Virus record (IMG/VR): IMGVR_UViG_3300005253_000054
Span: 1 to 64,000 of that record
Direction: 5' to 3' (one strand)
Length of the DNA stretch: 64,000 nucleotides
Origin: a virus
Shown here: piece by piece, positions 1,798 through 52,421 of the stretch
Numbering within the stretch: position 1 is the stretch's first letter
How the letters are laid out: every line of letters starts with the position of its first letter
Translations under genes and position numbers: made by a program
The notes under the pieces: generated by a model
Seen by the model: the letters and a program-made list of their open reading frames with translations, nothing else
Database searches by the model: none
Told to the model about the DNA's origin: nothing

Positions 1798-2188
1798 GGA
1801 ACAAGAGCCGATTGGTGGGTTGTTATGTGGATTGACACCTTATGAGATTCGATTGTTGACGGATGATCCGATAATTGGTGGGTATGGTCAATCCTTGAAA
1901 GATGTAAAACACTTTACTTTAGACCAAGTGTATATGATATTAGTAGAACGAAAGCATTTGAAAGAACATGATGATGGTGTTAGGACAAAATCAGTTGCTA
2001 GTTCGGATGTGGCTACAAAGGTCGATGCCGATGGGATGGTGGCAGCACGGGCTGAGGATGGTACACGGCTACGTCTGAAGACTGAGGGCAAGTCCCTTGC
2101 TAGGAGACTGATGGAAGAGGAACAGCATAAGAAGGAACGTCGGGCTCGTAAGAAACGACGTGGGAGGAAGCGACGATTGGAGGTATGA
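1757..2188 (+). CDS. frameshift extension of tail assembly chaperone (gpT-like)
   Basis: -1 frame relative to 1131..1769 with no stop from 1757 to 2188; includes track ORF 1820..2188. Confidence 0.7.
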   Translation, partial: KKWLGAATEKSSGPEQEPIGGLLCGLTPYEIRLLTDDPIIGGYGQSLKDVKHFTLDQVYMILVERKHLKEHDDGVRTKSVASSDVATKVDADGMVAARAEDGTRLRLKTEGKSLARRLMEEEQHKKERRARKKRRGRKRRLEV

Positions 2189-4466
2189 GAGAATTGGAAT
2201 TGAACTGGCTCGCGCTTTCGTCACAGTTAGGGCGGATTCGTCTAGGCTTTCCTCTGATTTTGGGAAAGTTCAGAAGAAAACCGGTCAGCTAATGTCTGGC
2301 ATATCGTCACAAATACGTGGCATGTTAGCTGGACTAGGGGTGATTGGTCTTGGTGCTGCATTTGTGGCAGCCGGTAGAGAGGCGGCTACTTTTGAAGACA
2401 CTATGATTTTTGTACGGGCAAATGCTCGTTTATTGGGAAAGGAGGGTGAAAAATCATTTAGGCAATTAGAGGCCGCTGCCAGGAAAATGGGGGCTACCAC
2501 TAGATTTACGGCTGTCCAAGCTGCCGAGGGTTTGAATCAATTGGTATTAGGTGGTTTGAAGGCTAAGGATGCTATAGTAGCATTGTCCAGTGTACTTAAT
2601 TTAGCTGCATCAGCCAATTTGGGATTGGGTGAATCTGCTAAAATTGTTGTGGATAATATGATTGTGTATGGATTAGCAGCAAATGATACGGCTAGAATTG
2701 CAGACTTTTTATCTTCTGCTCAATCCAGAGCACAAATTACAGCGAGGGATTTGGCGGATGGTCTTCAATCGTTGGGATCTATAGCATCAGAAATGGGTGC
2801 CAATTTTAATGATGTTGTGACTATATTGACGAGCATGGGAAGGGCCGGTGCGGATATGCGGTCCGCGGGAACTGCTTTGGCTATGGCTCTGGCAAGGATG
2901 ACAGATAAGACGGGTCCGGCTACGGCGGCCCTTAAAAGTATGGATGTAGAAATAAGAAACTTTACAAAACCTGGTGGCGGTATTGATTTAATACCCTTAT
3001 TTCGTGATATAGCTGACAAGATGCCAACAGATCCTATCGAACGCGGTGCTAAGGCCATAGAGATATTCGGAATAAAAGGCAAGATTATGCTGGGTATTTT
3101 TGGTCTAATGCGTCGTGGTAGATTTGTAGAGGAAACTGCGAAAGGGTTGGAGGATGATTTGGGACGTGCTGCTTTGGTAGCAGCCGCTCGTATGGACACA
3201 TTTTTGGGAATTGTTTTTACGTTAAAGTCGGCATTGTCCGATTTAGCTATCGCTGGATTAACACCCGTCTTGAAAGCCATTGAACCAATGATAGGTGTGT
3301 TCATAAAACTGACGGGGGCAATTTCTTTCCTAACAGAGAAGTTTTCTGAATTGAACAAAATGTCTGATGGGTTTATAAGCACTCTTGTATTAGCCACATT
3401 GGGCACTTTTGCTTTTGTCAGGGCGATTCTATTGATAGGTCCAGCAGCTAGGATTGCTGCTGCTGCTGTGAAGTTAGCAACAATATCTTCAGGTTGGGGG
3501 ATTATAATTGTTGCAATAGGACTTGTTATAGCGAGTTTGATTACCCTTGGGAATCGCATAAAGAAAATGGATAGTTTTCAGAAGACACTAAATGAAAATG
3601 CAGACAAGTTCAAATTGATTTGGATACGAATTAAACAGGTATTCACTGTGATGAGTGAAGCTGTGATAGAGGCATTCAATATAATAACAAGCAAAATTGC
3701 AGAAGTTACTGGTATTGATATTCCAAAACTCGTTGGTTCCATTGAACAGGTTACAGCGGATATGATAGGATTTATAGCCGATTTTGCCTTGGATACCGTG
3801 GAATGGTTTTTGGTTATCTTGAAAAATTCGGGTAAAGCATGGGAAGCCCTAAAGGGTGGATTTAGTGCTGCCGTCTCTTTTATGGGCGATATCTTATCGA
3901 ACTTCGTTGATATGTGGATTGATGCTATGAAAAACATCGGGGAGACTGTTATCGCGTTATTTACAAGTATTCCCAAATTAGCGAAGAAGGCTTTGTTAGG
4001 AGAGAATGTGTTGGGAGAGATTAAGAAAATTGTATCTGAAGGAATGGAGGGTGCCTTTGACGTTAGCAAACTACTAGACCCCAGTAAACGCACAAAGAAG
4101 ATATTAAGGGATAATGTGGAGGGTGCTTTCGGTGATCTTTTGGAGGAAAAAATAGCATTGGAAAAGGGTAGAAAGGATTTGTTGCCCAAAAAAGTTGCCG
4201 TGGAAGATCCATTACAAGATGCAATAGAACAAGGGGAGGCGTTCGGACAGGCTGCTGGAAATCAAATAGACAATATATTGACTTCACTAATAGGTGAGCG
4301 ATTAGGATTTAGAGAATTCGGTAAGACTATTCAAGATGCCCTGATAAAGGGAGGTAAGGACGACAAGGATGAAAAGAGAAATAGTCTTTTGGAGCAGGGT
4401 AACAAAAGGCAAGAAGATCTTATCAAGGCTGTTAAGGATTTGGAATTGCAAGGAGCCTTAACATGA
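2160..4466 (+). CDS. tail tape measure protein (TP901-like)
   Basis: ELARAFVTVRAD N-terminus, GATTRFTAVQAAEGL...VLNLAASA core, Ala-rich helical with TM-like segments; true start possibly ATT at 2193. Confidence 0.9.
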   Translation: MGGSDDWRYERIGIELARAFVTVRADSSRLSSDFGKVQKKTGQLMSGISSQIRGMLAGLGVIGLGAAFVAAGREAATFEDTMIFVRANARLLGKEGEKSFRQLEAAARKMGATTRFTAVQAAEGLNQLVLGGLKAKDAIVALSSVLNLAASANLGLGESAKIVVDNMIVYGLAANDTARIADFLSSAQSRAQITARDLADGLQSLGSIASEMGANFNDVVTILTSMGRAGADMRSAGTALAMALARMTDKTGPATAALKSMDVEIRNFTKPGGGIDLIPLFRDIADKMPTDPIERGAKAIEIFGIKGKIMLGIFGLMRRGRFVEETAKGLEDDLGRAALVAAARMDTFLGIVFTLKSALSDLAIAGLTPVLKAIEPMIGVFIKLTGAISFLTEKFSELNKMSDGFISTLVLATLGTFAFVRAILLIGPAARIAAAAVKLATISSGWGIIIVAIGLVIASLITLGNRIKKMDSFQKTLNENADKFKLIWIRIKQVFTVMSEAVIEAFNIITSKIAEVTGIDIPKLVGSIEQVTADMIGFIADFALDTVEWFLVILKNSGKAWEALKGGFSAAVSFMGDILSNFVDMWIDAMKNIGETVIALFTSIPKLAKKALLGENVLGEIKKIVSEGMEGAFDVSKLLDPSKRTKKILRDNVEGAFGDLLEEKIALEKGRKDLLPKKVAVEDPLQDAIEQGEAFGQAAGNQIDNILTSLIGERLGFREFGKTIQDALIKGGKDDKDEKRNSLLEQGNKRQEDLIKAVKDLELQGALT

Positions 4467-5374
4467 GTACAAACACGGACCCGTCCACCTGGCGATTGAG
4501 AACGGCCAGTGGGATCAGATACAAATTGATGGAAGGATTCCCCACTGGCACATTCGAGGATGAGAATGCTACTGCTGAAGAGCAGTATATAATACAAGCA
4601 CCCAATCTGTTTGCTTTTGTATTGGAATCGTTCCCCCCACCGATCGTGATTGGCAACTTTTTTATTAACCTACCGAAAAGATCTTTTCCATCATTGGTTT
4701 CTCTTCAGACCAAACGAATATCTTATCAACCATTCGAGGATGGAAGACCGTCTGATCCATTTGGTATTGATCTGGGGGCACCTGATGGCACGTATGCTGA
4801 TTTCTTATTGGTAACAATCAGTTACGCCACGGGTAAGAATAGTGGGGATGATAATAACCCAACTACCTTTTTGGAGATATCATCTAGTGCCACGGGTGAG
4901 ATTATTACAATACCTACAACTGGTAACAACTTTGGTTCACCCACTGGCGATCCAGTCCAAGATGGTGTTGTTCCAGTATCACAAGTTATACCTGAAACAG
5001 AATGGACTGTTAGATGGTCACAAATCCCTAATACTTTCTTTGATGTATTGCTTAATGTGATGCGACCTTTGATGGGGCGAGTAAGCAGTGTTCCAATGCC
5101 ATTGCTTAGAAATGCCGATGCATCTACTATTTTATTCATGGGATGGTCACACGAAGAACAGTTTACGTGGAAAAAGAATTTTGTGGATGCACCTCCTATC
5201 CAAGTGGAGATGCATTTCGTAGAGAAGAATCTTAATATCGACGGGTTTACCATAGGACACAATCACTTCTACAATCCAAAGACTGGGGCTTGGGAACAAT
5301 TATTCAATGCCAAAGGTGAATTGGTTTATCGTTCGGGTAATCTTAATAAAATGTTTCCGCCTTCGGTTGGGTAG
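4463..5374 (+). CDS. putative distal tail/tail tip protein
   Basis: ATGA overlap with tape measure gene; position in tail module. Confidence 0.5.
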   Translation: MSTNTDPSTWRLRTASGIRYKLMEGFPTGTFEDENATAEEQYIIQAPNLFAFVLESFPPPIVIGNFFINLPKRSFPSLVSLQTKRISYQPFEDGRPSDPFGIDLGAPDGTYADFLLVTISYATGKNSGDDNNPTTFLEISSSATGEIITIPTTGNNFGSPTGDPVQDGVVPVSQVIPETEWTVRWSQIPNTFFDVLLNVMRPLMGRVSSVPMPLLRNADASTILFMGWSHEEQFTWKKNFVDAPPIQVEMHFVEKNLNIDGFTIGHNHFYNPKTGAWEQLFNAKGELVYRSGNLNKMFPPSVG

Positions 5375-5379
5375 TTATT

Positions 5380-6573
5380 ATGGCCCGTGAAACCTTCCCC
5401 AGAAAAAAACCTGGTGATAGCTTAGAGGCTTCCCATGTCAATAAGCTATCACGAGTAGCAAGGCGTCTTTCCAATTTCCCGATAGGTTCCCATCAGATAG
5501 GCAAGCAAGGTGGAACATTTTCTGGTTCCGGTCCATACCCTCATTGGACGCAAGCCCCCGTTGAGATCACAAATAAGAAGATCGACTCAGACGATTCCGA
5601 AAACAGTGGATTATATTTATGCAAGATACGTTATTTTGATGGAGAAGAGTGGCAATTACAAGATCAGGAATATCAATTAGATGCTAATTCCATTAAAGAA
5701 AAATACGAAGTAGAGGATATTGTCACAGCCTATTTTTCACGTCAACGTGGGTTGTGGTTACCAATCACTTTTGTAGCCGGGATTCAATCATTCATAGAAG
5801 TAGAGGGAGTCACGACCACAACAATCGAGAAAGAAACGGGCGAAGATAGTTATGAGGTAGAATTTTGGTTAGAGCGTTCCTCTGGTGGACCATTCACCAT
5901 AGTTGGTGGTCGTACTTTCTTTATCAATGCTTACCATGAATCGGAGGATATTTCTGTAACTGGTGTGGGTTTCATTACATTCTTAGCACAACACAATGAG
6001 GTATTCCGATTGGTGGTAAGAGTATCAGAAGTATTGGAGGATGTTTCGAGTGTTTTGGGAGTAATGAAGTTTACGTCATTAGATAAGGATGGTATAACCA
6101 CCTCGGATACTTCGGCACCAGATGCAACCGTTGTAGGACGTCTAAGAGCCGTTGCTGAGGTAAATAATAACGATGGGGAATTGCGTTGGCCTAAGTACGA
6201 AATTCAGAATACATTGGAAGGTGTTAGGATACAAACACCCAAAGAGGAGACTTGGACAATAGAGGCGGACGTTTTGATTACGGCTGTGATCCAACCATCC
6301 TCGGCAAGTTCGGCCAGCACATCCTCGATTAGTACGTCGAGCCAAAGTGATGAGGTTAGCAGTGTTAGCAGTATCAGTACGTCATCCCCATCGTCACAAT
6401 CAATGTCTTCAATATCCACTAGTTCTAGCAGTGGAAGTAGTACTTCAACATCGTCCCAATCACCATCGTCCCAATCTTCGTTGTCATCACAATCCAGTAC
6501 ATCAAGCCAATCAAGTATTTCTACTAGTTCTAGTTCAATCAGCACAAGCAGTCAAAGTGATACTGGGGCATAA
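5380..6573 (+). CDS. putative tail protein with ~90 aa Ser/Thr-rich C-terminal tail
   Basis: C-terminus PSSASSASTSSISTSSQS...SSQSDTGA, encoded by mixed TCN/AGY codons. Confidence 0.65.
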   Translation: MARETFPRKKPGDSLEASHVNKLSRVARRLSNFPIGSHQIGKQGGTFSGSGPYPHWTQAPVEITNKKIDSDDSENSGLYLCKIRYFDGEEWQLQDQEYQLDANSIKEKYEVEDIVTAYFSRQRGLWLPITFVAGIQSFIEVEGVTTTTIEKETGEDSYEVEFWLERSSGGPFTIVGGRTFFINAYHESEDISVTGVGFITFLAQHNEVFRLVVRVSEVLEDVSSVLGVMKFTSLDKDGITTSDTSAPDATVVGRLRAVAEVNNNDGELRWPKYEIQNTLEGVRIQTPKEETWTIEADVLITAVIQPSSASSASTSSISTSSQSDEVSSVSSISTSSPSSQSMSSISTSSSSGSSTSTSSQSPSSQSSLSSQSSTSSQSSISTSSSSISTSSQSDTGA

Positions 6574-43934: not shown

Positions 43935-45344
43935 ATGAAACCCGCAACACCCCAAGCAATGGAATTGATGATGAAAGGGGCCATAGCCTTATCTCAAGTA
44001 GAGGCGGACGGGATGCGGATCGACGTTGATTATCTTGATAAGACCATCAAAAAAGTTACGAGGAATATCGCACGACAGACAGAGAAGCTAAAGGAATCAG
44101 AGGAGTGGAAAGTTTGGAAGAAACTCTATGGAAGCAAAATGTCCTTAGAGAGTGGACCACAGTTAGGCAAAGTTCTGTTCGACAAGATGGGTCACAAGTG
44201 TATAGCCAGAACGAAAACGGGCAAGCCAGCAACGGACCAGACTGCTTTGGAGCAACTAGACATCCCATTCGTAAGGAGATTGTTGAGCATTAAGAAGAAA
44301 AAGAAGATGCTCAGCACGAATCTCAAAGGAATCAGACGTGAGGTAGTAGATGGTATTGTAAGACCTTCATTCAATTTGCACCTTGTTACTACATACCGAT
44401 CAAGTGCTGATCGTCCTAACTCAAAAAATATACCAGTTAGGGATAAGAAGATAGGGAGGATGGTACGAAAGGCGTTCATTCCGAGGGATGGTCATGTTTT
44501 GGTAGAGATTGATTACTCTGCCGTAGAATTTAGGGTTGCATCGTGTTTTTGGCAAGATGAGGCAATGGTAGACTATGCCAGTAATCCCAATAAGGATATT
44601 CATAGGGATATGGCTGCCGAGTGTTATATGCTGAGAGAAGAGCAAGTAACAAAGGATGCCAGATTCTATGCTAAGAATCAATTTGTTTTTCCAGAGTTGT
44701 ACGGTAGTTGGTATGGACAATGTGCCATAAATTTATGGGATGCCATTGGAAAAGGAAAGTTGGAAGTTGGTATGACAGATGATGAGGAGTGTCGATGGTG
44801 TGGTGTGGGTTGTCGTAGTGATGTATGTTCAGTTTGTGGGGGAAAGCAGAAACGGGGATTGAAAGATCACCTGAATTCTAAAGGGATTACGGGTGTAGAG
44901 GGATTCAAAAGGGTTGTTCAAGATGCAGAGAATACTTTTAATGAGATGTTTCACGTATATAACGAAAAGAAAGAGGAATGGTGGGAAACCTATCTGAAAA
45001 GGGGTTATATTCGTTTGATGACCGGGTTTGTTTGTCAGGGAGTTATGAGTCGCAATAAGGTTTACAATTACCCCACTCAAGGTCCGGGTTTCCACTGTTT
45101 GCTTTGGTCCCTGATTCAGATGGTAAAGCGATTGCGAAAGGTGAAGTCGATGGTGATTGGAGAAATATACGATAGCCTTATCTTGGACGTACATAGGTCT
45201 GAGTTGGACGATGTTTTGCAAATGGCTAAACAAGTGATGACGGTCGATTTGTTGAAAGCGTGGGACTGGATTATTTGCCCTATGGAAATCGAGGCTGAGG
45301 TTGGCGAGGAAAATTGGGCAGATAAGAAAGAGGTGGAGATATGA
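43935..45344 (+). CDS. family A DNA polymerase, polymerase domain
   Basis: TYRSSADRPN, IDYSAVEFRV, DIH, RFYAK...LYG, NYPTQG, IYDS. Confidence 0.93.
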   Translation: MKPATPQAMELMMKGAIALSQVEADGMRIDVDYLDKTIKKVTRNIARQTEKLKESEEWKVWKKLYGSKMSLESGPQLGKVLFDKMGHKCIARTKTGKPATDQTALEQLDIPFVRRLLSIKKKKKMLSTNLKGIRREVVDGIVRPSFNLHLVTTYRSSADRPNSKNIPVRDKKIGRMVRKAFIPRDGHVLVEIDYSAVEFRVASCFWQDEAMVDYASNPNKDIHRDMAAECYMLREEQVTKDARFYAKNQFVFPELYGSWYGQCAINLWDAIGKGKLEVGMTDDEECRWCGVGCRSDVCSVCGGKQKRGLKDHLNSKGITGVEGFKRVVQDAENTFNEMFHVYNEKKEEWWETYLKRGYIRLMTGFVCQGVMSRNKVYNYPTQGPGFHCLLWSLIQMVKRLRKVKSMVIGEIYDSLILDVHRSELDDVLQMAKQVMTVDLLKAWDWIICPMEIEAEVGEENWADKKEVEI

Positions 45345-45715
45345 TTTGGCCATCAGGAATAGAATGTGATAGTAACGAAATTGAGTTGTGGTATGATGAT
45401 CTTGACGAGGATGTTATGGGCAAAATCAATAGGTGTCTAAAAGAAAAGGGTTTTCAGTTTGTGGATGATGGCTTAATACACGATGGGTATTCTGCCTATC
45501 GTTTGGAGAAGTTGTGATATGAAAGTTGGGAAAGAAGTTAGTGTGACTCCAGTATGTCAAGGGTGGTGTAGTGTGTTTGCTACAAATTTAGTTCCATTAA
45601 CGGTATCAATACTTGGTAAAACGAAATTAGAAGAAAAATCACAAGTGGAATTTGCTAAAGAAGTTTATGAATGTTATCGACAGAAACAAGCCAAGGAACG
45701 TGGAGAATTAGAAGA

Positions 45716-48700
45716 TTGAATTATCAAACATTCCTCAAAACGAAACGACTACGAACCGATCCTAAAGGATTCGATCCGATATGGTTACCAGATTGGTTAT
45801 TCGGATTCCAAAACCATTTGTGTGATTGGTCGATTCGTTTGGGCAGGTCTGCTTTATACGAGGACTGTGGGCTTGGCAAAGGCAGTCCTCCCAATATGCC
45901 TGTTTTAACTCCCACTGGATTTGTCCCAATAGGCAGTTTGGAAATTGGTGATTCTGTTATAGCTTCTGATGGAAAATCCTATGATGTAAAGGGGGTTTAC
46001 TTCAAACCGAGGCAGGATGTTTTCAGATTATGGTTTAGTGATGGTGTTTCGTTAGTAGTGGATTCTGACCATTTGCATATATGCCGAACAAATAATGACA
46101 GACAAAGAGATAAGCCCTGGCGTGTTTTGAGTACCAAGGAATTGTTGGAATGTAATAATTTGAGATATGGTAGTGATGGGAAGTCTCGTAATTACGATAT
46201 TCCCGTTGTTGGTCCAGTGGAGTTTTCAGTGGATTGCCCCAAAACATTGACACCATATATTATCGGAGCCTTGTTGGGAGACGGTTGTACTTCTCAACCA
46301 AGTATGATTCAATTCACATCTGCGGATTCTGAGATTGTCAACAGGATCAATAATGAATTGTTGGGTGGTGTTGAATTAGTTTATAAAGATCGTTATGAAT
46401 ACCGGTTAAAAACTGGTAAGACTGGTTGTGTGAAACATCCTATTCGTGCTTTTTTGTATCGGATTGGGATGATGGGGAAATTGTCGTATCAAAAAAGTAT
46501 TCCAAAAGAATACCTTATGTCGAAACGAATAGAGGATAGGTTGGATTTGCTTCGTGGTTTGATGGACACGGATGGGTACATAATGAAGTGTGGTACTTCT
46601 CAGTTCTATTCTGTTAGTAGAAAGCTTGCGACAGACGTGGAGTTTTTGGTCAGAAGTCTTGGGGGTGTTCCCACTTTTTCTAGGAAGCAAACCAGTTTGA
46701 ATGGAGAACGAAAGAGGGATTGTTATACTGTTACATTTTCATTAAAGACCTTCAATCCTTTCTTTCTGTCGAGAAAAGCAGAAAGATGGAATCCCGATCC
46801 TAGGGACAATGGTAGGTGGATTGATTCCATTGACTATGAGGGACAATCTGAGACAGTGTGTATTTCTGTTGATTCTCCTGATTCTAGTTATGTCACTAGG
46901 AGTTTCATTGTTACACACAATACTCCCCAGCAATTAGTATGGGCTGAGAATGTGGTTAGACACACAAACAAACCCGTTTTGATTGTGGCACCTTTGGCTG
47001 TATCCGCTCAGTTTGTTACAGAGGCAGAGAAGTTTGGGGTAGGGATACATCGTAGCCGTGATGGTAGATTGAAAAAGGGAATCAATGTTACGAATTACGA
47101 GCGATTACATCATTTTGATCCGAAGAGATTAGCTGGAATATCCTGCGACGAGTGTTTCCCTCCGGGAACGGCAATAGATGTTGTGAACCCCCTTGACAAT
47201 TCTTTAGAAAAGAAGTATATTGAAGATATTGCACGGGGTGACCAAATTCTCAATGCTTCTGGAGTAGATCATGTCAAACATATATGGAAGAGAAAAATCA
47301 ACGGGGCGGTTCAAGTCGGCACCGAAGGATCTAAAATTACCTGTAGCGAAAATCATCCATTCTTTACCTTGCATGGTTGGAAATTCGCACGAGATTTACG
47401 AGCCGGAGATTGTGTCATGGAGACAGCCTCGGCAATGTACTTGGTGCGGGGAGATTTTCAATCCGAAATATGTAGCGAACAAGATGGCGAGATTTTGCGG
47501 AACATCTTGCTCAGCGAAATGGCGGATGAATACACCGGAACACAAAGCAAAAGTACACAATCCAACTGTTGCCAAAAAAAGAGGAAAATCGAAAGCATTA
47601 TGGTTCAGAGGAGGATCAGCAACAGCCAAAAAAGAACTCAAGCGGATAGCCGAGTTGTGTCCGATGAAAGATCCGAAAGTGAGAGCGAAGGTGTCCAAAC
47701 GATTGAAAGAGATAGGACACAAGCCGAGGATTCAGGGAGGGAATGGGAGACCTTTGACGGAGCCGCAACAGATGCTATTAGATTTGTTGGGTGGGGAGTG
47801 GGTTGCAGAATATCCAATTACCCTTGGGAAAAAGATACCCGGATATCCAACGAATTACAAGGTAGATATAGGTTGCCAATTACGAAAAACAGCAATCGAG
47901 TTGGATGGGCATTCTCATTATTCCAGAAAAGAATTGGATCAGAAGAAAGACGAAATGCTGGCTTCGTTAGGGTGGACAGTGTTGAGGTTTTGGAATTGGG
48001 ACATCCTAGATTGGATAAATGGAGGGATGAAAAAGGAGACGTCTATTTCTATGATATTGAAGCAACACGACATCCATCTTTCAGTGTGAATGGTTTGTTA
48101 GTACACAATTCGTCTATCCTAAAAAACTTTGATGGAAAGATGCGAAGAAGAATTACAGATTTTGTATCATCTATCAATTATCGTCTCCTATGCACGGCCA
48201 CCCCAGCACCAAATGACCACATGGAATTGGGAACATCCTCCGAAGCATTGGGTGTAATGAGCCGTGGTCAGATGCTAGGAATGTTTTTCGTTAATGGTGG
48301 GGAAACAACGCAACAATGGTTGCTAAAAGGTCACGCGAAGAAACGATTCTGGCAATGGATGGGAACGTGGGCCAGGGCTATTCGTATGCCATCTGATCTT
48401 GGTTTTGATGACGGGGATTTTATTTTACCAGAGTTGATAATGAAACAGCATCTTGTACCTAGTGAGGTTACGGATGGATTCTTTCCTACTATGGCTGTTA
48501 CGTTGGATGAGCAGAGGGCAGAACGAAAACGGACGATGCAGGCTAGGTGCGAAAAAGTGGCTGAGATTGTTCCTAATGATAGGCCATTTGTTGCTTGGTG
48601 TCATCTGAATCCAGAATCAGATTTGCTGGAGAAGTTGATTCCTGATGCCGTTCAAGTTAGTGGTAGTATGAAAGATGAGGTGAAAGAGGAGCGATTGAAA

Positions 48701-49042
48701 GCGTTTGCTGATGGGCAGATAAGGGTACTGGTTACTAAACCAAAAATTGCTTCATTCGGTCTTAATTGGCAGCACTGTGCTGATATGTCATTCTTCCCGT
48801 CTCATAGTCATGAGCAATTTTATCAGTCTTTACGACGATGTTATCGGTTCCAACAAGAGAATTCAGTAACTTGTAATATCGTTACGAGTGAGGCTGAGAG
48901 TAGAGTTTTGGATAACATGATGCGGAAAGAGCGGCAGGCTGTGGAAATGTATGATGGGATCGTAAGAGAAATGGGTAGGGCTTTGGATGAATCGAATGGG
49001 CAAAAAGGAAACGAGGAAACGAGTATACCGTCATGGTTGTAA
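45716..49042 (+). CDS. SF2/SNF2-like helicase with two inteins
   Basis: Spliced exteins give CGLGK|T, CDE|SS, TATPAPND, FGLNWQH, RCYRF; probable TTG start at 45716. Confidence 0.9.
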   Translation: MNYQTFLKTKRLRTDPKGFDPIWLPDWLFGFQNHLCDWSIRLGRSALYEDCGLGKGSPPNMPVLTPTGFVPIGSLEIGDSVIASDGKSYDVKGVYFKPRQDVFRLWFSDGVSLVVDSDHLHICRTNNDRQRDKPWRVLSTKELLECNNLRYGSDGKSRNYDIPVVGPVEFSVDCPKTLTPYIIGALLGDGCTSQPSMIQFTSADSEIVNRINNELLGGVELVYKDRYEYRLKTGKTGCVKHPIRAFLYRIGMMGKLSYQKSIPKEYLMSKRIEDRLDLLRGLMDTDGYIMKCGTSQFYSVSRKLATDVEFLVRSLGGVPTFSRKQTSLNGERKRDCYTVTFSLKTFNPFFLSRKAERWNPDPRDNGRWIDSIDYEGQSETVCISVDSPDSSYVTRSFIVTHNTPQQLVWAENVVRHTNKPVLIVAPLAVSAQFVTEAEKFGVGIHRSRDGRLKKGINVTNYERLHHFDPKRLAGISCDECFPPGTAIDVVNPLDNSLEKKYIEDIARGDQILNASGVDHVKHIWKRKINGAVQVGTEGSKITCSENHPFFTLHGWKFARDLRAGDCVMETASAMYLVRGDFQSEICSEQDGEILRNILLSEMADEYTGTQSKSTQSNCCQKKRKIESIMVQRRISNSQKRTQADSRVVSDERSESESEGVQTIERDRTQAEDSGREWETFDGAATDAIRFVGWGVGCRISNYPWEKDTRISNELQGRYRLPITKNSNRVGWAFSLFQKRIGSEERRNAGFVRVDSVEVLELGHPRLDKWRDEKGDVYFYDIEATRHPSFSVNGLLVHNSSILKNFDGKMRRRITDFVSSINYRLLCTATPAPNDHMELGTSSEALGVMSRGQMLGMFFVNGGETTQQWLLKGHAKKRFWQWMGTWARAIRMPSDLGFDDGDFILPELIMKQHLVPSEVTDGFFPTMAVTLDEQRAERKRTMQARCEKVAEIVPNDRPFVAWCHLNPESDLLEKLIPDAVQVSGSMKDEVKEERLKAFADGQIRVLVTKPKIASFGLNWQHCADMSFFPSHSHEQFYQSLRRCYRFQQENSVTCNIVTSEAESRVLDNMMRKERQAVEMYDGIVREMGRALDESNGQKGNEETSIPSWL
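45881..46921 (+). mobile_element. intein 1 (347 aa, class 3-like, in-frame LAGLIDADG endonuclease)
   Basis: Starts GSPPNMPVLTP, ends VCISVDSPDSSYVTRSFIVTHN|T; GALLGDG and RGLMDTDG. Confidence 0.88.
47193..47221 (+). promoter_or_regulatory. promoter inside intein 2 for the nested endonuclease
   Basis: TTGACA-17 bp-TATATT; GGAG at 47261-47264, ATG at 47271. Confidence 0.7.
47271..48089 (+). CDS. DUF559/Vsr-like endonuclease with Zn-ribbon, nested in the +1 frame of intein 2
   Basis: CTWCG..FCGTSC; TEPQ, EY, YKVDI, AIELDGHSH, DQKKDEMLASLGWTVLRFWN. Confidence 0.85.
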   Translation: MSNIYGREKSTGRFKSAPKDLKLPVAKIIHSLPCMVGNSHEIYEPEIVSWRQPRQCTWCGEIFNPKYVANKMARFCGTSCSAKWRMNTPEHKAKVHNPTVAKKRGKSKALWFRGGSATAKKELKRIAELCPMKDPKVRAKVSKRLKEIGHKPRIQGGNGRPLTEPQQMLLDLLGGEWVAEYPITLGKKIPGYPTNYKVDIGCQLRKTAIELDGHSHYSRKELDQKKDEMLASLGWTVLRFWNWDILDWINGGMKKETSISMILKQHDIHLSV

Positions 49043-49986
49043 AGAAACAACTAATTACTGATAACTATGCTCTCCATTGCGGTGATTGCGTGGAGGTGTT
49101 AGCAGATTATCCGGATGAATCAATTGGCTTTTCCGTATTCTCACCACCGTTTAGTGATTTGTATTCGTACACGGATGAGCAAGAGGATATGAGCAACGTC
49201 AGGGATTACAAGGAATTCTTTAAGCATTTCAGATTCTTAGTCAATGAATTGCTTCGTCTTATGCTTCCTGGTCGTGTGGTGGCTGTGCATTGCATGGATA
49301 TACCTACTTACAAACGGGATGGTGAGGGTATAGGGATTCGGGATTTTCCGGGTGATATTGTCCGATGTTTTCAGAAAGTGGGGTTCATTTTTCATAGCCG
49401 TCATTGCATCTGGAAAGATCCCCTGATAGCAGCGACTAGAACGAAAGCAATCGGACTAGCCCACAAGTCAGTAGTAAAGGATAGCAGTATATGTCGTACT
49501 GGTATTCCAGATTACATCGTGTCGTTCCGAAAGCCTGGGGAGAATCTGAAACCGATTGAGAATCTGAATGGGTTTACTGAATACATAGGTTCTCGATCAG
49601 TTCCTAAAGACTTTGATAAGTATATTGGCTGTGAGATTCCAAAAAAGAACAGACGATCCCAATGGATTTGGCAACAGTACGCTTCCCCTGTTTGGTTTGA
49701 TATTGACCAAACAAAGGTATTGCCATTTAGGAATGCAAAGGGGAAGGATGATACTAAGCACATTTGTCCTTTACAACTTCAGACGATAGAAAGGTGTATG
49801 GTATTGTGGTCGAGGGAAGGTGATAATGTTCTATCACCATTTATGGGAGTGGGTAGTGAGGTTTATGTAGCTGTAAAGAATGGGAGAAGGGGTATCGGTG
49901 TAGAACTCAAAAAGAGTTATTATAGGCAAGCCGTTTTGAATGTGAAACAAGCCGAGAAGAAAAGGTCAGCTGGTTTCGATTTGTAA
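49033..49986 (+). CDS. DNA methyltransferase (N4-C/N6-A, beta class)
   Basis: GDCVEVL, FSPPF, HICPLQ, SPFMGVGSE, GVELK. Confidence 0.92.
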   Translation: MVVKKQLITDNYALHCGDCVEVLADYPDESIGFSVFSPPFSDLYSYTDEQEDMSNVRDYKEFFKHFRFLVNELLRLMLPGRVVAVHCMDIPTYKRDGEGIGIRDFPGDIVRCFQKVGFIFHSRHCIWKDPLIAATRTKAIGLAHKSVVKDSSICRTGIPDYIVSFRKPGENLKPIENLNGFTEYIGSRSVPKDFDKYIGCEIPKKNRRSQWIWQQYASPVWFDIDQTKVLPFRNAKGKDDTKHICPLQLQTIERCMVLWSREGDNVLSPFMGVGSEVYVAVKNGRRGIGVELKKSYYRQAVLNVKQAEKKRSAGFDL

Positions 49987-50573: not shown

Positions 50574-52421
50574 TTGACGATGCCCCCAGAACTCTATCGT
50601 AAATACCGACCTACCAAATTCTCAGAGGTATTAGGTCAACCTGAAGCAATCAAGACCCTAAACGATTGGGGCAAGCAAAAAGCGATACCCCACTTCCTGC
50701 TATTCACAGGCCCTAGTGGGTGTTTGCGTGGGGATACGAAGATATTTGATCCGGTGGATTCTAGTGATTTGTCTATTCGGGAGCGTTGGAGGATTGGTCA
50801 TCCTTTCCATGTTTTGTCGAGGAACGAGGATAACAGGCTGGTAGTGGCGGAAGCGATGCCACCGGTCCGCCATTCTCCAGATTGGATGTATCGTGTAAAA
50901 ACTTCTGAATCGCTTTTTTACGTAACGTCCGAACACCAGTTCCTCGTTGACACTGGTGAGTACCTTTCATTGAGGGAACTTTACGCTCGGAGATTCGACG
51001 GAGTCCATCTTCTGACCACTTGGGACATTTCCCAAGCAATTCAACACCAAGATGCTCACCATTGTTTGCAAACAAGATTAGATTATTCGGATCGTTATCG
51101 GTCTTATCCCCGTTTTTATGATGAACGACTTCCGATTCAGTCAGATATCGATTCAAAATACGCTCAAGCACCAAACGATGTTCTAGGACGTAACCGTTTC
51201 TCGCATTTGGATGTTTTGGCATCCGTATCAAAACATAACCATCCCCGTCAATTACACGACCACCTTTCCAGGCAGGATTATCGACACCACGTTGGAAAGA
51301 ATACTGTGGACGAATTTGGGTGTTTGAACGTTTCAACGATTCACGAACGTTTTGACGTTTTGTCTTCAGACGTTTTGCGATTTGTTTCTGAGTCCAACCG
51401 TCTTGATACATGCCCGAAACTAACTTGTCCCGTTCTGGAGTCCAAATACGACGCCTGTGTGGATAGAAGCCTTTTGGCATTGTCTTCTCCTTGTTTTGAT
51501 AGGACCATATTCTCTAGTACCATTATACAAGATATCTCCCAAACAAGCAAGCAGCCCTACTATGATTTTCATGTTCCTATTTACGAGAATTATTGGGCTG
51601 GTGGTTTGATTCATCATAATTGTGGCAAAACGACTTTAGCCCGAATTCTTCGGAAGAAACTCAAGTGTTCCGACCACGATTTTATAGAGGTGAATGCCGC
51701 CGAGACAAACGGGATTGATATGGTGCGGTCTATCGCGAGGGTAATGGGCCTTGCACCGATGATGGGCAGGTGTAGGGTGTGGCTCATAGATGAGGCTGCT
51801 AGGCTCACTAAGGATGCTCAGAGTGCTTTCCTCAAGATGCTGGAGGATACGCCCGAACACGTCTATTTTATGCTGGCGACAACTGATCCTCAGAAGTTAC
51901 TACCCACGATTATGACAAGGGCATCTGAGATTAAGGTAAAGGCTTTATCTTCTAAGGATATGACGGATTTGGTTAGAGGCGTACGTCATCAAGAGGAGCA
52001 AGCCAATTCTGAAGAGGATTTGGTTGGAATATCCGATGACGTTTGTGATAAAATTATTGACATAGCAGACGGATCGGCAAGGAAAGCATTGGTCCTATTG
52101 CATCAAGTGATTGGTGAAGGGGACGAGGAGAAGCAGTTAGCGGTCTTGCAACAGGCAGATAGCAAGCAACAGGCAATTGAGATTTGCCGATTGCTAATGA
52201 AAGCGAATACATCGTGGAAGCAGATGGCTAAGCTGCTTAGAGCCGTTGACGACGAGCCGGAGGGTATCAGGCGGCTGATGTTGGCTTATATGACCAAGGT
52301 AGGGCTGAGTGGTAATAAGAGGGCCATCGTGTGTCTTGAGGCGTTTGAGGAGCCTTATTTCAATACTGGCAGGGCAGGATTGGTTTTGTCCTGTTGGAAT
52401 GTAATCAATGGAGGTGGATGA
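50574..52421 (+). CDS. DnaX-like clamp loader ATPase with intein
   Basis: LYRKYRP..F.EVLGQ, GPSG|CGKTT, LIDEA, FLKMLED. Confidence 0.9.
   Translation: MTMPPELYRKYRPTKFSEVLGQPEAIKTLNDWGKQKAIPHFLLFTGPSGCLRGDTKIFDPVDSSDLSIRERWRIGHPFHVLSRNEDNRLVVAEAMPPVRHSPDWMYRVKTSESLFYVTSEHQFLVDTGEYLSLRELYARRFDGVHLLTTWDISQAIQHQDAHHCLQTRLDYSDRYRSYPRFYDERLPIQSDIDSKYAQAPNDVLGRNRFSHLDVLASVSKHNHPRQLHDHLSRQDYRHHVGKNTVDEFGCLNVSTIHERFDVLSSDVLRFVSESNRLDTCPKLTCPVLESKYDACVDRSLLALSSPCFDRTIFSSTIIQDISQTSKQPYYDFHVPIYENYWAGGLIHHNCGKTTLARILRKKLKCSDHDFIEVNAAETNGIDMVRSIARVMGLAPMMGRCRVWLIDEAARLTKDAQSAFLKMLEDTPEHVYFMLATTDPQKLLPTIMTRASEIKVKALSSKDMTDLVRGVRHQEEQANSEEDLVGISDDVCDKIIDIADGSARKALVLLHQVIGEGDEEKQLAVLQQADSKQQAIEICRLLMKANTSWKQMAKLLRAVDDEPEGIRRLMLAYMTKVGLSGNKRAIVCLEAFEEPYFNTGRAGLVLSCWNVINGGG
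50773..51480 (-). CDS. HTH-HNH homing endonuclease encoded antisense within intein 3
   Basis: GWTQKQIAKRL; NPAWKGG; GYVLEHRLV; VVHHKNGDKTDNDPNNL; SD AAGGAG. Confidence 0.9.
   Translation of the reverse strand: MPKGFYPHRRRIWTPERDKLVSGMYQDGWTQKQIAKRLKTKRQNVRESLKRSNTQIRPQYSFQRGVDNPAWKGGRVIDGDGYVLIRMPKHPNARNGYVLEHRLVLERILNRYLTESEVVHHKNGDKTDNDPNNLILFANNGEHLGVELLGKCPKWSEDGLRRISERKVPSMKGTHQCQRGTGVRTLRKKAIQKFLHDTSNLENGGPVASLPPLPACYPRSSTKHGKDDQSSNAPE
51522..51550 (-). promoter_or_regulatory. antisense promoter inside intein 3
   Basis: Minus strand TTGCTT-17 bp-TATAAT, 41 nt upstream of the HNH ATG. Confidence 0.75.

Follow-up and report, generated by a model that had tools for sequence, protein, structure and literature searches.

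Introduction

Homing endonuclease genes of the Vsr-like (EDxHD) type have been described as free-standing genes lying between the halves of split inteins, in so-called fractured genes (Dassa et al., 2009; PMC2677866). A recA group I intron encodes I-Bth0305I, the prototype EDxHD homing endonuclease (Taylor et al., 2011; PMC3239194; PDB entry 3R3P). Few inteins are known to house an endonuclease gene off-frame, and their description is recent. An antisense LAGLIDADG endonuclease gene in an intein is credited to Gorbalenya (1998) in bioRxiv 10.1101/2025.01.02.630785. Inteins of actinobacteriophage terminase, polymerase, capsid and thymidylate synthase genes contain antisense Vsr-like and same-strand frame-3 endonuclease VII-like genes (Gosselin, Arsenault & Gogarten, bioRxiv 10.1101/2025.01.02.630785); the authors of this 2025 preprint stated that no other report had linked Vsr-like endonucleases to inteins and predicted that same-strand secondary open reading frames (ORFs) are able to move into frame. 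In a cyanobacterial dnaX intein, a LAGLIDADG endonuclease is encoded by a +2 ORF (Phillips, DeSimone & Gogarten, bioRxiv 10.64898/2026.09.14.751524). Here, we describe a 64,000-nucleotide stretch of viral DNA (positions 1 to 64,000 of IMG/VR record IMGVR_UViG_3300005253_000054; the whole stretch is referred to as the window), in which the second intein of a superfamily 2 (SF2) helicase gene, intein 2, contains in its +1 frame an ORF for a Vsr/DUF559-like nuclease. The frame of the helicase and its inteins is called frame 0, and splice junctions are marked by a slash.

As in fractured genes, a Vsr-like gene lies between the N- and C-terminal parts of an intein in a phage DNA-metabolism gene, helicases being among those affected in both cases, and would be separately translated (PMC2677866). 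The 3′ end of the nuclease gene overlaps the C-intein coding region by 6–69 bp in fractured genes (PMC2677866) and by about 136 nt in the window, and the gp41-1 intein, the top structural match of our frame-0 model, stems from a fractured gene (PMC2677866). Unlike fractured genes, the window has a continuous frame 0 (45671–49042) that would give one precursor spliced in cis, so the locus does not count as a split intein. The N-terminal module of the nuclease also differs: it is a zinc finger of the FCS type (no search was aimed at NUMOD motifs). With the actinobacteriophage cases the locus shares a contiguous intein with an endonuclease in another frame, and an origin by invasion and a path to in-frame fusion have been proposed there too (10.1101/2025.01.02.630785); the window differs in having a sense +1, Vsr/DUF559-like gene, in its position in a helicase Walker B motif and in its relatives, of which IMG/VR holds at least 80. 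With the dnaX intein it shares the same-strand, contiguous arrangement, a low dN/dS in the endonuclease frame with a raised one in the overlapped intein frame, and the coexistence of intein-plus and intein-free alleles (10.64898/2026.09.14.751524). That intein is LAGLIDADG-type and cellular, whereas the window element is EDxHD/Vsr-like and phage-borne, and the frame offset and host gene differ. The nuclease resembles I-Bth0305I in its catalytic fold, in its E…D…x…H…D residues with a D-to-H spacing of 17 residues in both, and in its bipartite build of an N-terminal DNA-binding part and a C-terminal nuclease; however, the sequence similarity is weak (profile E = 0.0042), and among solved structures the DUF559 protein 3HRL is the nearest relative. 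As in off-frame-endonuclease inteins, the ORF lies inside the intein bounds in another frame, the intein frame is uninterrupted and the off-frame ORF is under purifying selection. Full-text literature searches turned up no Vsr/DUF559 gene in the sense +1 frame of a contiguous helicase Walker B intein, nor an occurrence on such a scale, and this variant appears to be unreported.

Evidence for coding in both frames

The openness of frame 0 was assessed by recoding. The nuclease protein was kept fixed and its synonymous codons were redrawn by the window's own codon usage; 20,000 such recodings contained a mean of 20.6 intein-frame stops and a minimum of six, and the real sequence contains none. 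The third frame has 20 stops across the nuclease region. The nuclease gene has T in the wobble position before none of the 79 codons starting with AA, AG or GA, against 53 of 192 codons elsewhere; as a T there would create TAA, TAG or TGA in frame 0, the mechanism of avoidance is directly visible.

Relatives were collected by a profile scan of IMG/VR, which gave 396 loci, and the best 80 were fetched. The set of 83 loci used below comprises the best-scoring ones and includes several duplicate pairs. The nuclease lies in the +1 frame of an open, covering helicase/intein ORF (490–1774 amino acids) in 82 of the 83, and the +2 and antisense frames are closed across the set. Both intein ends could be placed in 73 loci and follow the pattern DE (or DEAA, DEASR)/C[FVM]xxxT…VHN/C or S. 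In the eight ORFs scanned with Pfam, the exteins were diverse SF2 helicases (SNF2-related, ResIII/DEAD and a helicase–methylase fusion), while three of the eight (L027, L047 and L078) gave Hint/intein domains only, without an extein family. Given the diversity of the exteins, the element has spread among different ATPases via a common Walker B site.

A tblastn search of GenBank phages located the nuclease in 40 records, mostly from cultured Vibrio phages. In the three groups examined (Vibrio phages L001–L003), the nuclease is matched in the +1 frame of the helicase coding sequence (CDS) as annotated, and this CDS stays open. The intein sits in a DEAH-type helicase (QDE/CF…VHN/CHH), and GenBank annotates the helicase CDS only. 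The motif GW[TK]V[LF]RF lies over the intein strand ahead of block F with the same 3′ geometry as in the window, which argues for a single origin of the nesting.

The variability of codon positions was compared in a 17-sequence clade. Over nuclease codons 1–60 (47271–47450) the most variable position is that expected of the intein frame, and over codons 61–240 that of the nuclease frame; codons 241–272 show low variability at all positions with a slight intein bias. The ratio ω (dN/dS) was calculated by the Nei–Gojobori method (NG86) for 12 equal-length pairs from four clades. For the N-terminal splicing domain (first 90 amino acids) ω was 0.05–0.49 in frame 0 and about 0.6–1.7 in the +1 frame, for the central region 1.0–2.8 and 0.08–0.26, respectively, and for the C-terminal 45 codons, in 11 of the 12 pairs, 0.08–0.57 and 0.34–2.94; these values stem from overlapping frames and are qualitative only, but the hand-off between the frames is still clear. 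The remaining pair, L001/L003, gave 1.07 in frame 0 and 0.06 in the +1 frame for the C-terminal codons, on the basis of few substitutions. These ratios indicate that purifying selection acts on both frames, in different segments. In a zone constrained by both proteins (about 47955–48020), all three codon positions are low in variability and both structure models are confident; here, the nuclease motif GWTVLRF (47970–47990) uses the same bases as the intein strand FVRVDSVEV.

Taken together, these comparisons argue that the dual coding is real and conserved, and that chance openness and error are to be rejected. An earlier note on this DNA, made from the letters alone, had reached the same view, reading the locus as true dual coding rather than a frameshift error, and the 82 of 83 loci with both frames open, the frame-specific selection, the absence of indels from the contigs of the probable source runs and the conservation of the promoter-like hexamers and start signals in the six nearest relatives bear it out. 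Its description of the nuclease as overprinted holds as far as coding in two frames is concerned; the direction that the word implies does not hold for the central part, where it is probably reversed, the nuclease being the old and constrained frame and the intein-frame product an unconstrained, disordered linker. Likewise, the overlap of conserved elements was seen mainly at about 47955–48020 (where the shared bases of GWTVLRF and the intein strand are as the note had described them) and does not extend over the whole 819 nt.

Predicted products of the two frames

The profile searches recommended in the earlier note were run on each frame separately and returned the Pfam families Intein_splicing in frame 0 (E = 7.9e-11, helicase residues 532–813) and DUF559 (PF04480; E = 2.8e-13, above the family cutoff) in the +1 frame. 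The intein ORF of 319 codons with its junctions, and the +1 ORF with a zinc-binding module and a DUF559 nuclease, are thus both present as first noted; their coordinates are given in Table 1.

Intein 2 has the residues of a class-1 intein. Cys1 directly follows the N-extein and is invariant among 31 aligned homologs. Block B SxxH reads S65-E-N-H68; H68 is invariant, P69 is conserved at 90% or more, and position 65 is mostly Ser or Thr. The C-terminus LLVHN/S has Ser at +1; H318 and N319 are invariant in the aligned homologs, and wherever both boundaries were placed (73 loci), Ser or Cys occupies +1. An AlphaFold model of the frame-0 product was built with 31 homologs. Its ordered part is a HINT fold, which Foldseek assigned with a probability of 1.00 to the gp41-1, RecA and DnaB inteins, the top match being the gp41-1 intein (PDB entry 6QAZ; E = 1.6e-5, root-mean-square deviation 1.8 Å). 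The two splicing parts are confidently modelled, and the 141 residues between them are disordered (Table 1). This linker is probably an unconstrained read-through of the nuclease gene, held only stop-free. The first base of the nuclease codon is A or G in 91 of the 141 codons of the linker region, and the composition of the linker largely follows from such codons; selection for a hydrophilic linker is not claimed. Given that the helicase needs an intact Walker B motif and that frame 0 is open in 82 of 83 loci, we infer that intein 2 is spliced.

The +1 product has 172 homologs at E ≤ 1e-5 in a search of proteins of near length. The four cysteines of its zinc finger are conserved in the nuclease alignment (A1), and each of the putative catalytic residues E180, D199, E210/D212, H216 and D223 is either invariant in it or conserved at 90% or more. 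Their roles were assigned on the basis of those of I-Bth0305I (E170, D196, N208, H213 and D222; PMC3239194). A search of the PDB with the single nuclease sequence did not reach I-Bth0305I, for which a profile was needed; the profile matched 3HRL with E = 1.3e-13 and 3R3P (I-Bth0305I) with E = 0.0042. A structure model built with 23 homologs has a mean pLDDT score (the local distance difference test as predicted) of 86.7. Foldseek with the whole model gave no match at E ≤ 0.001. Structural alignment of the C-terminal domain in VIA-align gave Z = 10.3 for 3HRL (2.3 Å over 85 residues), Z = 8.9 for 3R3P (3.3 Å over 91 residues) and Z = 7.9 for Vsr (PDB entry 1CW0; 2.9 Å over 95 residues). Approximately the first 55 and the last 20 codons of the +1 ORF appear, from the comparisons above, to evolve under the constraint of the intein frame.

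Putative initiation signals of the nested gene

The promoter-like motif TTGACA-17-TATATT, followed by GGAG, 6 nt and ATG, was present as the earlier note had stated. The former is the top promoter-like match within 45000–49500. Five of the six nearest sequences, L004–L007 among them, retain both hexamers, TTGACA and TATAT(T/A), 17 nt apart; L008 has TTGATA. In the window and L004–L008, the ATG stands 55 codons ahead of the zinc finger, with (A)GGAG at 6–9 nt, and the His or Tyr codon that supplies the AT of this ATG always ends in T. A second subclade has an ATG or GTG start 44 codons upstream, with GAGG, and in distant members the start is 2–13 codons ahead of the zinc finger. At the start region the RNA is less structured than in any of 200 shuffles (z = +2.0). 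A TAG in the +1 frame stands one codon upstream of the ATG at 47271, which makes expression by frameshifting unlikely. A terminator scan returned nothing relevant within the intein 2 element.

Variants and empty sites

A precise intein-free allele was found. In run X4 (marine sediment, from a different study), a 729-nt contig with flanks about 91% identical to the window joins 47153 to 48115 with CGAG between, which corresponds to a precise, uninterrupted DE/SS allele. DE/SS is uninterrupted and intein-free in all of the 60 nearest C-extein homologs (35–77% identity), which are about 460 amino acids long. In the relatives that carry the intein and nuclease, the exteins are only 32–53% identical, compared with 49–61% for the nucleases, so that the relatedness of exteins and inteins is discordant. 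Contigs of runs X1–X3 are identical to the window, with no indels, and these runs are its probable source, so they are not independent; the compensating indels looked for in them were absent.

The nuclease also occurs in other arrangements. Locus L020 (3890–4693) has an intact, free-standing nuclease of 267 amino acids in the intergenic space between divergently oriented genes. Stops abound in what was once its intein frame, and the C-terminal splicing block survives as a recognisable relic without VHN. An open frame 0 thus does not follow automatically from the nuclease sequence, and the locus suggests that the nuclease gene can escape the helicase or be left behind outside it. In three clusters of metagenomic UvrD-type helicases (P0123–P0125), found in a search among longer proteins, a DUF559 nuclease is fused in frame inside a DE/C…VHN/C Walker B intein. 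These three clusters compare with the 172 proteins matched as a separate gene, of which the genomic context was checked for the 83-locus set only. The fused nucleases belong to the same family as that of the window (49–51% identical over the catalytic domain) and share the DE/C…VHN/C Walker B insertion and the presence of HINT, and they are without the zinc finger and without the overlap on the C-terminal splicing blocks. An in-frame Vsr-like intein endonuclease was not found in the literature examined.

Feature coordinates and surrounding genes

The features are listed in Table 1. The IMG/VR record carrying the window comprises 100,283 bp with direct terminal repeats and is estimated to be 100% complete. 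The sequencing runs that contain the window are marine sediment metagenomes, and the phage is uncultured. Pfam and PHROG matches place the helicase locus within a plus-strand phage replication module. A blastn search of the region against GenBank phages gave only a 172-nt extein match, to Dulem virus 39.

Table 1
Features of the helicase locus and its surroundings. Positions refer to the window unless another locus is named; aa, amino acids.
Feature	Position	Strand	Details
Family A DNA polymerase	43935–45344	+	
SF2 helicase precursor ORF (SNF2-like, DESS-type Walker B)	45671–49042	+	1123 aa, two inteins; PHROG DNA helicase E = 5.5e-35; Pfam Helicase_C
Helicase intein 1, LAGLIDADG	45881–46921	+	Helicase aa 71–417; begins with Gly, GLGK/GSPPN…VTHN/T
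Insertion site, N-extein side (presumed homing site)	47144–47152	+	Walker B C-D-E codons
Helicase intein 2, class-1 type	47153–48109	+	319 codons, helicase aa 495–813; CDE/CFPPGT…NGLLVHN/SSILKN
N-terminal splicing (HINT) part of intein 2	47153–47530	+	aa 1–126; 10-residue block mean pLDDT 91–97 (aa 1–100), 63–91 (aa 101–126)
Sigma-70-like promoter candidate, within intein N-domain codons	47193–47221	+	TTGACA-17-TATATT; 11 of 12 positions
Shine–Dalgarno GGAG (47261–47264), 6-nt spacer and nuclease ATG (47271)	47261–47273	+	
Nested +1-frame gene, putative homing endonuclease	47271–48089	+	272 aa plus stop; Pfam DUF559 in the +1 frame
FCS/treble-clef-type zinc finger, CxxC…CxxxC	47436–47510	+	C56, C59, C76, C80; profile matches 2W0T (E = 0.005), 2L8E (E = 0.012)
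Frame-0 linker of intein 2, disordered	47531–47953	+	aa 127–267, 141 residues; pLDDT 31–39, almost no secondary structure
DUF559/Vsr-like (EDxHD-type) catalytic domain	47751–48077	+	Pfam DUF559; PDB profile matches 3HRL, 3R3P
Putative catalytic residues	47808, 47865, 47898/47904, 47916, 47937		E180, D199, E210/D212, H216, D223
C-terminal splicing part of intein 2, blocks F/G	47954–48109	+	aa 268–319; VYFYDIEA…NGLLVHN; pLDDT 91–96
Core double-constrained zone	47955–48020	+	In +1, nuclease strand and helix LGWTVLRFWNWDILDWI; in frame 0, intein strand and loop NAGFVRVDSVEVLELGHPRL
Insertion site, C-extein side (presumed homing site)	48110–48118	+	S-S-I codons
DNA methylase	49033–49986	+	
Clamp-loader-like ATPase	50574–52421	+	DNA_pol3_delta2, AAA
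Nested +1 nuclease, cultured Vibrio phage, L001	2977–3606 of OZ196825		
Nested +1 nuclease, cultured Vibrio phage, L002	2743–3528 of MG592463		
Nested +1 nuclease, cultured Vibrio phage, L003	2977–3606 of MW824411		

Loose ends of contigs from run X4 at 46922 read GLGK joined directly, which supports the boundaries of intein 1 and shows that intein 1 is also absent from that relative. In L034, the helicase ORF (2011–5454, plus strand) contains an upstream LAGLIDADG_3 match (residues 354–425) and an intein with a +1 nuclease, so that at least this relative has the double-intein layout of the window.

The clamp-loader-like ATPase gene (50574–52421) has an apparent third intein, for which the Intein_splicing match is weak. 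A 235-residue ORF with an HNH_3 match (E = 5.4e-6) runs antisense within the same gene (50773–51480, minus strand). An intein would here contain an endonuclease gene on the opposite strand, giving a second non-canonical architecture at a distance of 2.5 kb from the helicase intein.

Discussion

The locus is very probably best explained by cis-splicing across a disordered read-through linker together with a separately initiated homing endonuclease. Intein 2 would be a non-canonical mobile intein, the homing endonuclease of which is no domain of the intein polypeptide but has a gene of its own, lying in the +1 frame of the central region. Translation of the helicase precursor would run in frame 0 through the nuclease gene, giving a mini-intein-like HINT domain split by a linker of about 141 residues; the N- and C-terminal splicing parts would associate, excise the intein and join …CDE to SSILKN…, restoring Walker B. 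Ribosomes would start independently at the ATG (47271) via GGAG, and the gene may have its own promoter (47193–47221). The 272-residue product is predicted to join a zinc finger to a helical DNA-binding region and a nuclease of the EDxHD/Vsr-like type. It would most likely cut intein-free helicase alleles at DE/SS in co-infection, and repair would copy the intein and nuclease in. The likely origin is the invasion of a mini-intein loop by a free-standing Vsr-like endonuclease gene, of which only versions free of frame-0 stops would have survived.

Two other explanations concern how the nuclease is encoded. Two compensating indel errors, in sequencing or assembly, could have displaced a nuclease that truly belongs in frame as a domain of the intein; UvrD-type helicases do contain rare versions of this kind. 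The probability of such an artefact is close to nil, as frame 0 is open over the entire nuclease gene against about 21 expected stops, the +1 relation recurs across 82 loci assembled independently, cultured Vibrio phage genomes among them, and the X1–X3 contigs (possibly the source data) have no indels. Programmed +1 ribosomal frameshifting would give a fusion of N-extein, N-terminal intein part and nuclease with no internal initiation. Both ORFs are on the same strand and offset by +1 throughout, and the position of the start codon is not kept family-wide, as frameshifting would allow. We nevertheless regard it as very unlikely: the TAG before the ATG would confine the shift to the first codons; most loci examined have a start codon between the upstream +1 stop and the zinc finger, often no more than about 20 codons from the stop and at several of them with a Shine–Dalgarno-like motif; in L020 and the fractured-gene relatives, such nucleases are expressed from genes of their own (PMC2677866); and no conserved slippery motif was seen, although no systematic search for one was made.

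The other two explanations accept the nested gene and concern its role. Its main function might be phage exclusion, defence or counter-defence, or degradation of host DNA; DUF559/Vsr-like nucleases are found in many contexts, and L020 shows that the nuclease can persist outside an intein. Against this, the nuclease is nested almost exclusively in inteins, at one conserved site type, the presence of the intein is sporadic among close helicase relatives and a precise empty allele exists, and its homologues include I-Bth0305I, a proven homing endonuclease, and the Vsr-like genes associated with inteins in Dassa et al. (2009); if the nuclease cut intein-free competitors, this activity would anyway be that of homing. 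A main role other than homing is thus improbable. That the nuclease is an inactive relic in the window phage, its frame still open and the intein kept only for splicing, would agree with homing-cycle theory, which expects decay after fixation. The ORF is of full length with all of the conserved catalytic and zinc-binding residues and an intact Shine–Dalgarno sequence and ATG, ω in the +1 frame is 0.08–0.26 family-wide, and intein-free targets occur in similar habitats, all of which leaves a relic with a very low probability.

Several points weigh against a spliced intein with an independently started homing endonuclease. We infer splicing, internal initiation, promoter activity, cleavage specificity and homing for an uncultured phage, and splicing across the disordered 141-residue insert is presumed because the helicase must work. 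The position of the nuclease start codon varies between subclades, and the first 55 or so codons of the +1 ORF have no constraint of their own, which makes the true N-terminus of the nuclease uncertain. The promoter and Shine–Dalgarno motifs fall in conserved intein codons, so amino-acid constraint partly explains their conservation; the promoter was scored as sigma-70-like, and the promoter type of the host may differ. The qualitative nature of the ω values belongs here as well.

We are inclined, by a little, to see in these loci a large, old and undescribed lineage of Walker B (DE/x) inteins in phage SF2 helicases, with a nested +1 EDxHD/Vsr-like gene of which the 3′ part is double-coding. 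This reading covers at least 80 IMG/VR loci and the cultured Vibrio phages, with +1 nesting in 82 of the 83 loci examined. The cultured Vibrio phages, for example 1.088.O._10N.261.46.A1 (on V. lentus) and 104E43.1 and 159E43-1b (on V. crassostreae), have the same layout and make these ideas directly testable. The locus indicates that annotation can systematically overlook a same-strand overlapping gene more than 800 nt long on which purifying selection acts. Compact inteins with apparent splicing across an unstructured insert of about 140 residues, and a set of EDxHD nucleases presumably differing in their Walker B-region specificities, are potential reagents for protein and genome engineering.

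If the lineage is as described, it would supply the contiguous intermediate on the pathway to intein endonuclease domains, beside the free-standing gene of L020, the fractured genes (Dassa et al., 2009) and the in-frame fusions P0123–P0125, and would show in nature how stop codons are kept out of about 140 codons for the sole sake of read-through. The free-standing, nested and in-frame fused states are all found in nature, and the split state has been published. The locus provides unusually clean comparative evidence on how inteins acquire homing endonucleases, with a free-standing nuclease gene placed in a mini-intein and tolerated because the frame of the intein stays open as a disordered linker.

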